In this document: piece by piece, positions 1 through 4,025 of the stretch
How the letters are laid out: every line of letters starts with the position of its first letter
Numbering within the stretch: the first letter of the stretch is position 1
Source: a virus
Taxonomy: Duplodnaviria; Heunggongvirae; Uroviricota; Caudoviricetes
IMG/VR virus record: IMGVR_UViG_2585427756_000014
Coordinates: 1 to 4,025 of that record
Length of the DNA stretch: 4,025 nucleotides
Reading direction: 5' to 3' (one strand)
Translations under genes and position numbers: made by a program
The notes under the pieces: model-generated
The model's input: only the letters and a program-made list of their open reading frames with translations
Databases searched by the model: none
What the model was told of the DNA's origin: nothing

Positions 1-541
1 TCCCTTCGCGCTGGCTGAAGTTTTCGCGGTAAGTGATCGCCTCCTGCACTGTCTTGCAGCCATACGCTGACAGGTAAGCAAATCCACGCAGGCTTTGCGC
101 CACGCTCAGCAACTCAGTAGCTACCGCCTTGGTGTCGTGGCCTGGCACGCCGAGAATGCGCGGTTTAACGCCGAGCTGTGACTGGGCAGATAACAGGGCT
201 TTCATACCTGTTTTTTTACCTTCAGCAGTCACTGCGCCGATGATATTGGTCGTGGTTTCGTCTTCCGTTTCACCCTGCGGCACACGCACAACAATGGTCA
301 CGGGTTTTGCCTGGTCAGCGATGGCATCCAGCGAACGGGCCAGCGTACCGGACTCCCCCGCTTTACCGCTGGCAGTCAGCACATCAGTGATCAGCACGGG
401 TTTATTAAGAGGAAACATTTTTGCATCGGCATCATCGCCCGTGCAGACCATACCCACGATGGCGGTGCTCACCGTGGTAATGGATCGGGTGCCTTCGTTG
501 ATTTCAACAACGCGCACCCCGTGGTGGTAATCCTGAGCCAT
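1..541 (-). CDS. Contractile phage tail sheath protein (P2 gpFI-like), N-terminal 180 codons; partial, continues beyond window start
   Basis: Minus-strand frame from ATG at 539-541 is open to position 1. Translation begins [35 protein letters not shown]..., which closely matches my recollection of the P2 FI sheath N-terminus (MSDYHHGVQVLEINEGTR...). AGGAGG lies 9 nt upstream of the ATG. The plus-strand ORF 129-530 is antisense to it. Confidence 0.85.
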
Positions 542-617
542 AGCGGCGAACCTCCTGATTGGATTAGGCTTCGCCCTATGTTGAAGTGATTGTGCCCGAC
601 AAACAGCTAAGTGTAGT

Positions 618-635
618 TGTACAGTTATTCACACA
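618..635 (-). promoter_or_regulatory. TGT-N12-ACA dyad, candidate P2-type late-promoter activator (Ogr/Delta-family) binding site upstream of the sheath gene
   Basis: The sequence tgtgtgaataactgtaca (read on the sheath coding strand) has its centre about 85 bp upstream of the sheath ATG. The motif and its position in the intergenic region ahead of the FI-like gene fit P2/P4 late promoters. No strong -10 or -35 was identified. Confidence 0.4.
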
Positions 636-683
636 AAATGACGGTATTTGTCTACTTGCAGGGATAATCAAAATTATGCTGAT

Positions 684-1250
684 TCAGGGGGATTCACTGC
701 TCTTATTTGCCGGAAATTTTCTATAAATGGTAGAAACGCCCACATCAAAAATCAGTGCAATACGCTGTCTTGATTCTCCGGCCTCGAGTAAACGTCCAAT
801 CTGTGCCCACTGTTCGGTGGTCAACTTAGGACGGCGTCCACCTACTCTGCCTTTGGCACGAGCTGCAGCCAGCCCTGCCCTGGTTCGTTCAACTATCAGT
901 TCGCGTTCCATTTCAGCCAGAGCCCCCATGACATGAAAAAAGAAACGGCCCATTGGGGTACTGGTATCAATACTGTCAGTCAGGCTTCGGAAATTCACAC
1001 CACGCTGGCGCAACTCTTCTATCAGCGTAACAAGATGCCGCATACTGCGACCCAGTCTGTCCAGCTTCCAGACAACCAGCGTGTCTCCTGCCGATAGTGT
1101 CCTGAGCAGTTTTTTAAGCCCCGGTCTGTCGGACTTAGTGCCACTGATTTTGTCCTCAAAAATCCGGTCACATCCCGCGCAGTTCAGTGCATTACGTTGC
1201 AAATCGGTGTTCTGGTCATTTGTTGACACGCGTACATAGCCAATAAGCAT
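684..1250 (-). CDS. Serine DNA invertase, Hin/Gin/Pin/Cin family (copy 1 of 2, identical to copy 2)
   Basis: Translation MLIGYVRVSTNDQNTDLQRNAL...DTLVVWKLDRLGRSM...MGRFFFHVMGALAEMERELIVERT...GGRRPKL...IFDVGVSTIYRKF contains the resolvase/invertase catalytic domain with the serine in the YVRVST motif and a C-terminal helix-turn-helix. The longest ORF extends to 1295 ([15 protein letters not shown]...), but the family-typical start is the MLIGY methionine at 1250, preceded by a GGGGG Shine-Dalgarno-like run. Confidence 0.9.
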   Translation of the reverse strand: MLIGYVRVSTNDQNTDLQRNALNCAGCDRIFEDKISGTKSDRPGLKKLLRTLSAGDTLVVWKLDRLGRSMRHLVTLIEELRQRGVNFRSLTDSIDTSTPMGRFFFHVMGALAEMERELIVERTRAGLAAARAKGRVGGRRPKLTTEQWAQIGRLLEAGESRQRIALIFDVGVSTIYRKFPANKSSESP

Positions 1251-1277
1251 GAGCATCCCCCTGAATAAAAACCGGAG

Positions 1278-1850
1278 ATGATGCCAGTTAGCCATTATCT
1301 CTGCATTTTCATAAACGTTGGTTTGGGAGAAGGTGCTCCAGCTATTGGCGTTCCGTTCTTCTGGCCGTCCGCCGCAATGCCAAATACTGTAATCGACAGT
1401 TGGTCCAGTATGGTGTTTTTGAAGTTCAACGGCGCGAAATTCTCTGCCACTGATTACCCTGTGCTGGCGAAAGTGTTTCCGGCGCTAGCATTACCTGACG
1501 CACGGGGTGATTTCATTCGTATCTGGGATGATGGGCGCGGGATTGATGTCGGACGTACCCTACTTTCAGGGCAATCACACACAATTATGGATCATGCACA
1601 CAATATGGAGTTGTGGACGGGGGACGGGCTTGCCGCAGGAAGTGCACGGGAGGGAGTAAACCCAGGAATACTGGCCACATACGGTGACGGGGGAATAGTT
1701 AAAACGGACGAACCCGGTCTTAAGGTGCCTTCCTCACTACGAGCTCTTAGCTCTCGTAGTGTTAAACGTTATGGTGAAATTAGTGGAAATGTAGATACAG
1801 AAACCCGTCCACGAAATATTGCATTTAACTTTCTGGTGAGGGCTAAATAA
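1278..1850 (+). CDS. Tail-fibre C-terminal variable (receptor-binding) cassette A, 190 aa; orphan, lacking the constant N-terminal shaft region
   Basis: The ORF crosses the crossover site and ends ...GNVDTETRPRNIAFNFLVRAK, resembling the C-terminal motif of Mu S / P2 H-type tail fibres. Its stop overlaps the start of the downstream chaperone gene. An in-frame stop lies 4 codons upstream of the first ATG, and that ATG sits antisense to the invertase 5' end, so no N-terminal constant domain is attached. Confidence 0.65.
   Translation: MMPVSHYLCIFINVGLGEGAPAIGVPFFWPSAAMPNTVIDSWSSMVFLKFNGAKFSATDYPVLAKVFPALALPDARGDFIRIWDDGRGIDVGRTLLSGQSHTIMDHAHNMELWTGDGLAAGSAREGVNPGILATYGDGGIVKTDEPGLKVPSSLRALSSRSVKRYGEISGNVDTETRPRNIAFNFLVRAK
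1306..1331. other. Left 26-bp crossover site, gix/hix/cix-like (invertase recombination site)
   Basis: The sequence ttttcataaacg-tt-ggtttgggagaa has two imperfect inverted 12-bp half-sites around a central dinucleotide. The right half matches my recollection of gixL in 10 of 12 positions. The site straddles the repeat/unique boundary and lies in the tail-fibre reading frame (encodes CIFINVGL). Confidence 0.55.
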
Positions 1851-2443
1851 TGAAACCTGTTTTTGATGAAAATGGGCTGGCTACAGTGCCGGGCGATATG
1901 CGTTGTTTTTATTATAATGCAGTAACGTATGAATATACCGGCTGGTCTGATGAATATATTAATACTGGCGTAAGTATACCCGCCTGTTCCACTGGTATTG
2001 ACCCGGGCGAAAACATTCCGGGAAAAGTGGCAGTATTTACGGGTAAGGGATGGAGCCATGAAGAAGACCATCGCAATGAGACCGTTTACTCAACTGAAAA
2101 TGGCGCAGCTGTTACAGTGGATTATATCGGTGCCATCAAAGACGGTTATGTCACGCTTTCACCGTTAACGCCATACGATAAATGGGATGGTGAGAAATGG
2201 GTGACGGATACCGAGGCACAGCATAGCGCCGCAGTAGAAGCGGCAGAAGCACAGCGCCAGTCGCTGATTGATGCTGCAATGGCTTCCATCAGTCTGATTC
2301 AACTGAAATTACAGGCTGGGCGGAAGCTGACGCAGCCAGAAAACACCCGACTTAACGCTGTGCTGGATTACATTGACGCGGTGACGGCAACAGATACCAG
2401 CACAGCGCCGGACGTCATCTGGCCTGAACTGCCGGAGGCGTAG
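1850..2443 (+). CDS. Tail-fibre assembly chaperone A (Tfa / Mu U / P2 G family), 197 aa
   Basis: Translation MKPVFDENGLATVPGDMRCFYYNAVTYEY...DKWDGEKWVTDTEAQ...LDYIDAVTATDTSTAPDVIWPELPEA has the N-terminal and C-terminal motifs (DTSTAPD-IEWP-like) of lambda Tfa-type assembly proteins. It is translationally coupled to cassette A. Confidence 0.85.
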   Translation: MKPVFDENGLATVPGDMRCFYYNAVTYEYTGWSDEYINTGVSIPACSTGIDPGENIPGKVAVFTGKGWSHEEDHRNETVYSTENGAAVTVDYIGAIKDGYVTLSPLTPYDKWDGEKWVTDTEAQHSAAVEAAEAQRQSLIDAAMASISLIQLKLQAGRKLTQPENTRLNAVLDYIDAVTATDTSTAPDVIWPELPEA

Positions 2444-2855
2444 GCCATTCAATATCTGGCGCACCGGAAGTATCGACCAGTTCCAGTGCGTCCAGATAAT
2501 CCAGCCACAAATTATATTGCGCCAGTTCCTCACCTTTCAGCCGGCCAATAGCCGCTTTACCAGGCCATTGTTTACTGTTCATATAATCGTTGGCCTGATT
2601 AATCAGTTGCTGCTTTTCCAGTTCGGCTGCAGCAATCTGTTCCTCATGTGTTGGTGGTGGAATTTCAGACCATGCAGGAAAACCATTTTCTCCAGCGATA
2701 CGGATTTTTCCTTTCGGCGGTAATCCGGAAAACTCAATATACACTTGCTCATCAACTTCAACAGCATCATCTGGCCATGAGTCAGCTTGAGTGTAATCCT
2801 CTTTCATCTCCAGCGGATAGAAAGAGTTTGTAGTCGCGGAATATATGTAATTCAT
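2415..2855 (-). CDS. Tail-fibre assembly chaperone B (Tfa family), 146 aa
   Basis: Translation MNYIYSATTNSFYPLEMKEDYTQ...NLWLDYLDALELVDTSGAPDIEWPTPPAVQAR carries the conserved Tfa C-terminal motif. GGAG lies about 6 nt upstream of the ATG. Its 3' end overlaps the convergent chaperone A gene by 29 bp. Confidence 0.85.
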   Translation of the reverse strand: MNYIYSATTNSFYPLEMKEDYTQADSWPDDAVEVDEQVYIEFSGLPPKGKIRIAGENGFPAWSEIPPPTHEEQIAAAELEKQQLINQANDYMNSKQWPGKAAIGRLKGEELAQYNLWLDYLDALELVDTSGAPDIEWPTPPAVQAR

Positions 2856-2876
2856 TTTTCACTCCATATAGCTAAA

Positions 2877-3269
2877 TTAACAGCCTAACGCTAAAAATGA
2901 AGCGCCGAGGCCAGGAGTACTGGCTCTGGATATAAATTTAACCGGGTCGGGACTAAAACCTGCACAGGCAATATAACCAACAGCCCCGCTATCTGGTGTG
3001 TAGTCTTGTGAGACCAAAACACGCAGACATCTGTTTGGAAATGCAATCGGGAAATGGGTTACTACATCCTGTGCAATGCCTGGTGCGCCGATTGAGCCCC
3101 ACTGAAGAATAAAACCTGATGGTAATTTTTGATATCCAGTACCTGAAACAGAAAGCGTGAAGCTACCCATATCAGGTATCTGATTCGCCCCTGTCCCTAC
3201 ATTCCTTTTAGCCGCTTTTCCCAAACCAACGTTTATGAAAATGCAGAGATAATGGCTAACTGGCATCAT
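2877..3269 (-). CDS. Tail-fibre C-terminal variable cassette B, 130 aa; orphan, lacking the constant N-terminal region
   Basis: It shares the first 17 codons ([17 protein letters not shown], encoded by the repeat and crossover site) with cassette A, then diverges completely ([15 protein letters not shown]...[17 protein letters not shown]...). It lies immediately upstream of chaperone B on the same strand. The tail-fibre tip assignment is by context and composition, not by a strong motif. Confidence 0.6.
3216..3241. other. Right 26-bp crossover site, gix/hix/cix-like
   Basis: This is the mirror image of the left site. The outer half-site is identical, and the inner half-site differs at one position (ggtttgggaAaa versus ggtttgggaGaa on the other side). 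Coordinates are +/-2 bp. Confidence 0.5.
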
Positions 3270-3296
3270 CTCCGGTTTTTATTCAGGGGGATGCTC

Positions 3297-3863
3297 ATGC
3301 TTATTGGCTATGTACGCGTGTCAACAAATGACCAGAACACCGATTTGCAACGTAATGCACTGAACTGCGCGGGATGTGACCGGATTTTTGAGGACAAAAT
3401 CAGTGGCACTAAGTCCGACAGACCGGGGCTTAAAAAACTGCTCAGGACACTATCGGCAGGAGACACGCTGGTTGTCTGGAAGCTGGACAGACTGGGTCGC
3501 AGTATGCGGCATCTTGTTACGCTGATAGAAGAGTTGCGCCAGCGTGGTGTGAATTTCCGAAGCCTGACTGACAGTATTGATACCAGTACCCCAATGGGCC
3601 GTTTCTTTTTTCATGTCATGGGGGCTCTGGCTGAAATGGAACGCGAACTGATAGTTGAACGAACCAGGGCAGGGCTGGCTGCAGCTCGTGCCAAAGGCAG
3701 AGTAGGTGGACGCCGTCCTAAGTTGACCACCGAACAGTGGGCACAGATTGGACGTTTACTCGAGGCCGGAGAATCAAGACAGCGTATTGCACTGATTTTT
3801 GATGTGGGCGTTTCTACCATTTATAGAAAATTTCCGGCAAATAAGAGCAGTGAATCCCCCTGA
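3297..3863 (+). CDS. Serine DNA invertase, Hin/Gin/Pin/Cin family (copy 2 of 2, identical to copy 1)
   Basis: Same 188-aa product as copy 1 (MLIGYVRVSTNDQ...). The longest ORF starts at 3252. This copy is on the plus strand, reading away from the invertible segment toward the sheath gene, as in P2-like prophages where the invertase occupies the slot between tail-fibre and sheath genes. Confidence 0.9.
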   Translation: MLIGYVRVSTNDQNTDLQRNALNCAGCDRIFEDKISGTKSDRPGLKKLLRTLSAGDTLVVWKLDRLGRSMRHLVTLIEELRQRGVNFRSLTDSIDTSTPMGRFFFHVMGALAEMERELIVERTRAGLAAARAKGRVGGRRPKLTTEQWAQIGRLLEAGESRQRIALIFDVGVSTIYRKFPANKSSESP

Positions 3864-3911
3864 ATCAGCATAATTTTGATTATCCCTGCAAGTAGACAAA
3901 TACCGTCATTT

Positions 3912-3929
3912 TGTGTGAATAACTGTACA
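3912..3929 (+). promoter_or_regulatory. TGT-N12-ACA dyad, candidate P2-type late-promoter activator site (mirror copy)
   Basis: The sequence tgtgtgaataactgtaca has its centre about 85 bp upstream of the sheath ATG at 4006. It lies in the pin-sheath intergenic region. Confidence 0.4.
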
Positions 3930-4005
3930 ACTACACTTAGCTGTTTGTCGGGCACAATCACTTCAACATAGGGCGAAGCCTAATCCAATCAGGAGGTTCG
4001 CCGCT

Positions 4006-4025
4006 ATGGCTCAGGATTACCACCA
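4006..4025 (+). CDS. Start of a second tail sheath (FI-like) gene copy; only the first 7 codons (MAQDYHH) fall in the window
   Basis: Identical by inverted-repeat symmetry to the first 20 nt of the minus-strand sheath gene at 522-541. AGGAGG lies 9 nt upstream. It is too short to judge on its own. Confidence 0.5.

Follow-up and report, generated by a model that had tools for sequence, protein, structure and literature searches.

Gin, Hin, Pin and Cin inversion systems share a simple layout, with a single invertase gene beside one end of the invertible segment and the constant part of a tail-fibre gene beside the other. A stretch of 4,025 nt from a Caudoviricetes virus (IMG/VR record IMGVR_UViG_2585427756_000014, positions 1 to 4,025; the whole stretch is called the window here) departs from this layout as deposited, having a pin gene on both sides of the segment and no tail-fibre gene H. 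The locus therefore raises the question of whether the phage itself carries two mirrored invertase genes or whether its sequence was incorrectly assembled. An earlier note, made from the letters of the window, had offered two readings, namely a genuine large inverted duplication in a defective prophage and a fold-back or chimeric assembly artefact.

Structure of the window

Base-by-base pairing gave a strictly perfect inverted repeat of 807 nt between positions 522-1328 and 3219-4025, which confirms the earlier claim of a perfect repeat of at least 807 bp with an invertase gene in both arms. A repeat search gave slightly wider arms (522-1337 and 3210-4025). Outside the perfect part, pairing is at the chance level (9-21 of 60), and a perfect inverted repeat of 807 nt within 4 kb cannot have arisen by chance. 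Within the window, the right arm ends only at the window edge. Extension to the end of the repeat, as the earlier note had proposed, was carried out on the source contig, where both arms are perfect and 1328 nt long (1-1328 and 3219-4546) and the left arm hits the contig end.

Each arm comprises a 188-aa pin/gin-type serine DNA invertase gene (left, 684-1250 on the minus strand; right, 3297-3863 on the plus strand), a 142-nt spacer between pin and the sheath gene, and the sheath start codon, which is mirrored at 539-541 (minus strand) and 4006-4008 (plus strand). The two invertase copies are identical. The outer end of the left arm is formed by the first 541 nt (180 codons) of a P2-like tail sheath gene FI (1-541, minus strand), with a 180-aa product carrying PF22671/PF04984 that reaches the contig end, and on the right the first 20 nt of FI (4006-4025, plus strand) are present before the window edge cuts the gene. 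We judge the left arm and its invertase gene to be a duplicate made in assembly, and the right arm, with its invertase gene and sheath start, to be the genuine copy.

The segment between the arms contains two alternative C-terminal tail-fibre exons, each with a cognate tail-fibre assembly chaperone. Sv (1332-1850, plus strand) matches a 189-aa gene that adjoins pin in the relative L004 and in the finished genome L012 (OZ038772.1, discussed below), and is followed by tfa (1850-2443, plus strand; 197 aa, PF28596 and PF02413). From the other side, Sv' (2877-3215, minus strand; Gp53-like_C), which equals the C-terminus of the 466-aa H protein of L012, is paired with the convergent tfa' (2415-2855, minus strand; 146 aa, PF02413). 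No H N-terminal domain is joined to either exon within the window, and both appear there as orphan ORFs: Sv starts at 1278/1281, inside the spacer between pin and the site, and Sv' belongs to a 130-aa ORF at 2877-3269. The ORFs and the repeat arms thus agree with the layout described earlier, sheath-pin-[segment]-pin-sheath without a tail-fibre constant region.

The segment is bounded by two inverted 26-bp crossover sites with a core of TT / AA on the plus strand. The site at the pin-to-Sv junction (1306-1331) reads TTTTCATAAACG TT GGTTTGGGAGAA and is the same as the pin-side site of L012. The site at the Sv'-to-pin junction (3216-3241), read from the pin side, is TTTTCATAAACG TT GGTTTGGGAAAA, a junction of the flipped orientation; at this place L012 has the H-side half-site TTCTCGCATACC. 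The mirroring had been described as lying outside the crossover sites, which needs correction, since the perfect repeat enters both of them and covers the pin-side half-site, the central TT and 9/12 bases of the segment-side half-site.

Membership in the Gin/Hin/Pin/Cin systems

Recombinases of these systems combine a catalytic N-terminal domain, which carries the active-site serine, with a helix-turn-helix at the C-terminus, and their crossover sites consist of two imperfect 12-bp half-sites flanking a 2-bp core; the invertase gene contains, in its 5' part, a recombinational enhancer bound by Fis. The 188-aa invertase matches the Gin structure 3UJ3 over residues 1-184 (E = 2.6e-92) and has the features of a small serine recombinase, namely PF00239, PF02796 and the catalytic Ser9 in MLIGYVRVS. 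Both orientations of the segment were found among relatives, with pin beside Sv in L004 and L012 and beside Sv' in JNQN01000132.1, which is 100% identical over 3229 nt.

Compared with Gin/G of Mu, Cin/C of P1, Pin/P of e14 and Hin/H of Salmonella, the real element is the same in that its invertase matches Gin at full length, its two inverted 26-bp sites have a 2-bp core, and its segment holds two alternative tail-fibre C-termini with one chaperone each. Only the deposited contig differs, with its two invertases and missing constant tail-fibre region. Because the one-invertase layout with a constant tail-fibre part is found in the finished relative L012, the departure from it in the window points to an error in the contig rather than to an unusual element.

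Gene order in finished relatives

The finished chromosome L012 is 100% identical to the window over positions 1-3229, and is 99.98% identical to the flank and arm of the source contig. Its prophage has one pin and the same chromosomal neighbour as the source contig (Asp-Al_Ex), and on the far side of the segment, where the window has its second pin, it carries the 466-aa tail-fibre gene H (constant region at L012 11381-12428), and I, J, W and V come next. The transition from H sequence to pin sequence lies precisely on the central TT of the crossover site. Similarly, CP119006, which is 98.5% identical over 1-3229, has one pin and H-I-J-W-V on the far side of the segment. Pin is annotated in the finished relatives as a 567-nt recombinase CDS. 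When the whole window was sought in a phage collection, no record covered more than 52% of it; Escherichia phage Cartapus (NC_070909.1) covers 38% at 96.4% identity, and its annotation includes a sheath protein, a DNA invertase and two genes for tail-fibre assembly.

The left junction of the window is in the orientation of L012, and the right junction is in the flipped orientation, which is present alone in JNQN01000132.1. Each junction is legitimate on its own, and in the window the left junction of one orientation is combined with the right junction of the opposite orientation.

The source contig and its end

Apart from one synonymous base, the window matches the first 4025 bases of the draft E. 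coli WGS contig JOSM01000180.1 (213,870 bp; assembly GCA_000713695.1), read as the reverse complement. A literature search on the JOSM00000000 project gave no hits for how it was sequenced and assembled. Window position 1 is a physical contig end, so the left arm has no unique flanking DNA. The right arm, in contrast to the flankless left one, continues through the entire tail module (sheath, tube, tape measure, U, D and ogr) into chromosomal DNA, first an Asp-Al_Ex gene and then about another 200 kb, as expected of an arm present in one copy. This continuation through the tail genes agrees with the earlier observation that the right half has the usual P2-like gene order. We would like to note that a contig stopping at the repeat boundary is also expected from a real inverted repeat of 1328 nt. 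A k-mer vertex shared with another P2-like sheath type was considered as the cause of the arm end, 541 nt into the sheath gene, and is unsupported by the relatives compared: no exact run of at least 20 nt is shared with the 396-aa sheath type near that point.

Survey of finished genomes and draft contigs

The palindromic arm was used as a query against 5426 finished E. coli genomes, and about 900 records had a best match of at least 95% identity. Identical facing arms were found in 0 of the 5426 genomes, including the roughly 900 records that carry the arm, and two different facing arms were found in one finished genome, CP182374. Three other draft contigs have the same fold-back, with arms of 1010 nt (L016), 95 nt (L023) and 76 nt (L028) at 99.9-100% identity; these arms begin at the site and run up to the final base of the contig or locus (the locus end in L016).

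In bacterial drafts, palindromic contigs have been reported as an error of short-read assembly (PMC9455707). Like the present case, such contigs have identical arms, exact reverse-complement genes and a repeat that touches the contig end. The present case differs in having a biological trigger, an actively inverting segment, and the fold-back breakpoints are therefore recombination sites.

Origin of the mirrored arms

Taken together, we put the probability that the mirrored invertases are a fold-back by a short-read assembler, made at the invertible segment at the end of a draft contig, at about 0.88, and it is accordingly very probable that they are no real feature of the molecule. The real phage almost certainly has a single invertase and a normal tail-fibre gene. 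It would be a P2-like prophage of the usual kind, arranged as chromosome-ogr-D-U-T-E-FII-FI-pin-site-[Sv tfa tfa' Sv']-site-H-I-J, in which Pin, a Gin-like serine invertase, would flip the 1.9-kb segment by strand exchange at the central TT of the two inverted 26-bp sites. One culture would then contain four junctions (pin-Sv, pin-Sv', H-Sv and H-Sv'); in single-colony E. coli cultures, both orientations of the e14, Mu and P2-like segments are present (PMC4272514). Library inserts were presumably shorter than the segment, so that reads could not pair an outside flank with a segment end. The assembler may have proceeded from the chromosome through pin and the pin-Sv' junction into the segment and out by the Sv-pin junction, whereupon it would have gone backwards through pin a second time, and through 541 nt of the sheath gene, before it stopped. 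We infer both the mixed-orientation population in this library and the behaviour of the assembler; the exact coincidence of both breakpoints with the crossover dinucleotide makes a path across orientations likely.

Of the two readings offered earlier, it is thus the artefact that is favoured, by the contig end, L012, the breakpoints at the crossover core and the survey, and the genuine duplication that is disfavoured. Palindromic chimeric reads had been named as a source of the artefact, and here too the position of the breakpoints makes a path through both orientations the likelier one. A fold-back chimera at the level of library or reads, in which hairpin ligation or template switching yields palindromic molecules that the assembler follows, has next to no probability in our estimation. 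Palindromic contigs can generally come from such chimeras, and the arms here are 100% identical, but chimeras from hairpins or template switching break at random points and enclose hardly any loop or none. Here the entire 1.9-kb segment forms the loop, and the two breakpoints fall on the invertase crossover core, for which reason read-level hairpins were rejected. Each junction also occurs alone in other assemblies, and the pattern recurs at the same site in the three unrelated draft contigs. Scarcely more probable is a genuine local inverted duplication, in which site, pin and the 5' part of FI would have replaced the tail-fibre constant region and left a defective prophage with no functional fibre. 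This is the structure as deposited, and Sv and Sv' indeed lack an H N-terminal domain in the window; nevertheless, everywhere else the prophage agrees at 99.98% identity with an intact prophage in the same chromosomal position, the duplicated arm goes no further than the contig end, and none of the 5426 finished genomes has such a duplication. For a duplication to end precisely on the crossover dinucleotide, Pin would additionally have to act between sister chromosomes, and by topological reasoning that reaction would yield an inverted chromosome dimer and no local duplication.

It is improbable, though somewhat less so, that the source strain truly has pin-[segment]-pin, either by Pin inversion between identical prophage copies or from a prophage and a pin-FI remnant. 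A third option, absent from the two readings of the earlier note, is an inversion that really took place between two prophages. Here Pin would recombine the pin-side site of one P2-like prophage with the H-side site of an identical or near-identical copy in direct orientation, leaving pin-[segment]-pin at this locus and H-[segment]-H elsewhere, and taken by itself this event is slightly less probable again. Breakpoints at the crossover core suit such an inversion as well as they suit an artefact, and it has a precedent in CP182374 (E. coli bR_120_Kylling). At 2.236-2.241 Mb this closed chromosome has the same layout, sheath-rec-[segment]-rec-sheath, and its reciprocal, J-I-H-[segment]-H-I-J, is found about 95 kb away at 2.140-2.145 Mb. 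The chromosome has undergone a real reciprocal inversion (about 95 kb) between two P2-like prophages at their invertible segments. Additionally, in CP070071 a P2-like arm is joined to a pinE element beside ssrA. In CP182374, however, the arms share just 80% identity in pin and 68% in the sheath gene, against 100% here, and facing arms that are identical occur in none of the finished-genome records carrying the arm. Whereas CP182374 has, in one genome, two arms that lead to different flanks and the reciprocal H-[segment]-H junction, the left arm of the source contig lacks a flank of its own. A collapsed two-copy arm (about 9 kb) should also break the contig at attR, but the contig runs from segment through arm into 200 kb of chromosome.

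Implications for draft prophage sequences

With the assembler fold-back as the preferred reading, the main value of this locus is as a caution: actively inverting segments can yield mirrored gene copies at the ends of short-read contigs, and such copies mimic duplicated invertases, palindromic prophages and defective phages and inflate gene counts. Three checks decided the matter here and can be reused: whether the outer arm lies at a contig end, whether a finished near-identical genome has a different flank, and whether the breakpoints fall on the crossover core with each junction occurring alone in other assemblies. CP182374 serves as the positive control for a real event. If the source strain did carry the structure, it would be the identical-arm counterpart of CP182374, and would show that phage invertases are able to rearrange the chromosome of their host by acting between lysogenised copies.

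The 130-aa ORF across the junction is found in exact form in only two contigs of the index, JOSM01000180.1 among them. The index lists two samples with this contig, and the window and JOSM01000180.1 differ by one base; the structure may thus be the product of two assemblies, and this is compatible with a deterministic artefact as well as with a real structure.

The inverted repeat and the invertible segment

A repeat-finding program placed the inverted repeat of the window at 522-1337 and 3210-4025, and base-by-base pairing of mirror partners narrowed the strictly perfect arms to 522-1328 and 3219-4025 (807 nt), outside of which pairing falls to chance level. The right arm is bounded solely by the window edge, while left of the mirrored part the window holds a further 521 nt of the sheath gene (FI). 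Each arm carries a 188 aa recombinase gene (pin; left copy 684-1250, minus strand; right copy 3297-3863, plus strand), the spacer between the recombinase and sheath genes, and the sheath start codon. The recombinase contains Resolvase and HTH_7 domains, matches a solved Gin invertase structure over residues 1-184 (E = 2.6e-92), and has its catalytic serine at position 9, within the N-terminus MLIGYVRVS. The earlier note had described the invertase gene as duplicated in a perfect inverted repeat of at least 807 bp; the pairing bears out this repeat, but its arms end within the crossover sites and not outside them.

The 1.9-kb centre between the arms is a typical tail-fibre inversion cassette, made up of Sv, a variable fibre C-terminus (1332-1850, plus strand), tfa, the assembly chaperone of Sv (1850-2443, plus strand), the convergent second chaperone tfa' (2415-2855, minus strand), and Sv', a second variable C-terminus with a Gp53-like_C domain (2877-3215, minus strand). 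Read from outside to inside, the left 26-bp site is TTTTCATAAACG TT GGTTTGGGAGAA and the right is TTTTCATAAACG TT GGTTTGGGAAAA. Neither Sv nor Sv' has a tail-fibre N-terminal region in the window as assembled, and the ORFs of both (1278-1850 and 2877-3269) begin in the pin-site spacer with a 17-residue sequence. A silent variable exon adjacent to pin lacks that N-terminal region and probably forms no functional gene in that orientation; RefSeq labels one such ORF (L001 5281-5850) as "phage tail protein". The ends of the convergent tfa genes overlap by 29 nt (2415-2443), and their 3' regions hold an 18-nt imperfect inverted repeat (2362-2379 and 2488-2505), at which the protein sequences are LDYIDA and LDYLDA. 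This repeat is most likely a shared C-terminal motif encoded on opposite strands, rather than a terminator or a site.

The source contig and the native gene order

In the gene-position index, just two contigs carry a 130 aa junction ORF in which the pin spacer is fused to Sv'. One of the two is JOSM01000180.1, a 213,870-bp draft contig of assembly GCA_000713695.1, whose first 4025 bases, reverse-complemented, agree with the window at every position but 1978, where the window and the finished E. coli chromosome OZ038772.1 (L012) have A and JOSM01000180.1 has C, a synonymous change in tfa. Because the match starts from base 1 of this contig, window base 1 is a physical contig end. Extension past the window, which the earlier note had proposed for locating the end of the repeat, gave perfect arms at 1-1328 and 3219-4546 of the contig; the left arm runs off the contig end, so unique DNA beyond it is absent anywhere in the record. 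From the right arm the contig continues through sheath, tube, E, tape measure, U, D, and ogr into the chromosomal Asp-Al_Ex gene and approximately 200 kb more. Since the index lists two samples for JOSM01000180.1, the window may belong to a sibling record that folds back in the same way and ends at the same base.

OZ038772.1 matches window positions 1-3229 at 100% identity and the chromosomal flank and right arm of the draft contig at 99.98%, and at its prophage ogr adjoins Asp-Al_Ex, the same chromosomal neighbour as on the draft contig. Beyond the segment, this finished chromosome encodes the tail-fibre protein H (466 aa, of which the last 113 residues are Sv'), then I, J, W, and V. Read against it, the draft contig runs through flank, arm, and site, then the flipped segment, and then the same pin and sheath backwards. 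The far site in OZ038772.1, from the H side toward Sv', is TTCTCGCATACC TT GGTTTGGGAAAA, and the same place in the window is TTTTCATAAACG TT GGTTTGGGAAAA. The H-side half-site is thus replaced by the pin-side half-site, placing the switch from H to pin exactly at the central dinucleotide, the strand-exchange point of Gin/Hin-family invertases. The native inverted repeat has only about 14 perfect bases.

The right junction of the window is therefore the one that a flipped segment normally forms between pin and Sv', and the left junction is the one that an unflipped segment normally forms between pin and Sv, as OZ038772.1 shows. Both junctions cannot occur on one molecule with one pin. The pin-Sv' junction alone, with a single pin, was found in draft contig JNQN01000132.1 (L035), at 100% identity over 3229 nt. 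That contig consists entirely of these 3229 nt of prophage in the flipped orientation, and its two breaks, one immediately after the stop codon of the sheath gene and the other within tfa, suggest graph tangles at this locus in its assembly too.

Palindromes in draft and finished assemblies

The left-junction 41-mer was present in 20 viral-collection loci, three of which (L016, L023, and L028) show a pin-segment-pin arrangement; their arms, respectively 1010, 95, and 76 nt long, share 99.9-100% identity. In all three the outer arm ends at the final base of the contig or stored locus (L023 and L028 being whole contigs, and the L016 arm end being the end of the stored locus). Including the source contig, all four fold-backs therefore touch an end, that of L016 being a stored-locus end.

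We searched 5426 finished E. coli genomes with a 4-kb palindromic query, a 2-kb sheath-pin-site arm joined to its own reverse complement, for which coverage of at least 80% in one place is attainable only for a record in which two arms face each other within about 2.5 kb. The best match had at least 95% identity in about 900 records, and the ordinary records among the matches listed covered exactly one arm. Exactly one record, CP182374, passed the 80% threshold, at a mean identity of 86.7%, and its arms come from different prophages (pin identity 80%, sheath identity 68%). A mirror-image J-I-H arm query also retrieved exactly one record, again CP182374, at 2,139,689-2,145,137; the pin-segment-pin junction of this record lies about 95 kb away. 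The palindromic query found no identical facing arms among the 5426 genomes. Thus, identical-arm palindromes occur in draft assemblies and in none of the closed ones surveyed.

The presence of both reciprocal junctions in CP182374 marks it as a genuine reciprocal inversion between two different P2-like prophages, with exchange either at the 26-bp sites, by the invertase, or within the shared segment, by homologous recombination; this record shows what a real inter-prophage inversion looks like. In that genome (bR_120_Kylling), one region (L002, NZ_CP182374.1 2,232,038-2,243,790) reads sheath-recombinase-[segment]-recombinase-sheath and the other (L037, NZ_CP182374.1 2,137,189-2,147,637) reads V-W-J-I-H-[tfa tfa']-H-I-J-W-V.

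Origin of the mirrored invertase

Both orientations of e14, Mu, and P2-like invertible segments are found within single-colony E. coli cultures (PMC4272514), so the short-read library of a lysogen would hold all four junctions. The 1.9-kb segment presumably exceeds the library insert, and the assembly graph would therefore permit a pin-segment-pin' path, which the assembler would have followed, reading back 1328 nt of its own path in reverse complement before it halted. Contigs of palindromic form have been reported as an error of short-read assembly (PMC9455707). A k-mer vertex shared with other sheath types at the fold-back stop was looked for, and none was found.

We consider that the mirrored invertase, although confirmed as a repeat in the sequence, is very probably not real (confidence 0.88). 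CP182374 is a precedent for a real inversion between prophages, but an invertase-mediated one between two identical copies is unlikely here, given that the arms are 100% identical, that such structures are missing from the finished genomes surveyed, and that the contig passes unbroken through a 9-kb arm, which in that case would form a two-copy repeat. A local inverted duplication is very improbable, as it offers no plausible way of placing a breakpoint on the crossover core, and least credible are read-level hairpin chimeras, which would be expected neither to loop over the complete segment nor to break at both recombination sites. Between the two origins that the earlier note had left standing, the contig end, the gene order in OZ038772.1, and the survey favour an assembly artefact, and the position of the breakpoint on the crossover core speaks against a genuine inverted duplication. 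P2-like prophages with an invertible tail-fibre segment of the Gin/Pin type, such as the one underlying this sequence, are already known.

Related cassettes in E. coli

In strain FDAARGOS_1287 (L003, NZ_CP070071.1 125,005-136,761), an invertible segment links a P2-like sheath-recombinase arm to pinE, beyond which lie hypothetical genes and then ssrA and smpB; here a P2-like prophage has apparently been rearranged with an element linked to ssrA. An identical 197 aa tail-fibre assembly protein, with much of the surrounding cassette, is found in ten loci (L004-L013) in P2-like (L004, L011, and L012), Mu-like (L005-L007, L009, L010, and L013), and e14-like (L008) contexts, so that unrelated types of E. 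coli prophage have one inversion cassette in common. In a Mu-like prophage adjoining dinI and prfC, the segment occurs in both orientations across genomes (L006 and L013 versus L009). The place of the invertase gene holds only a 44 aa ORF in L006 and L013 and no called gene in L009, and all three retain DNA resembling the start of pin, with about 79% similarity over roughly its first 100 nt. If still flipping, this Mu-like segment would need an invertase supplied in trans by another prophage.
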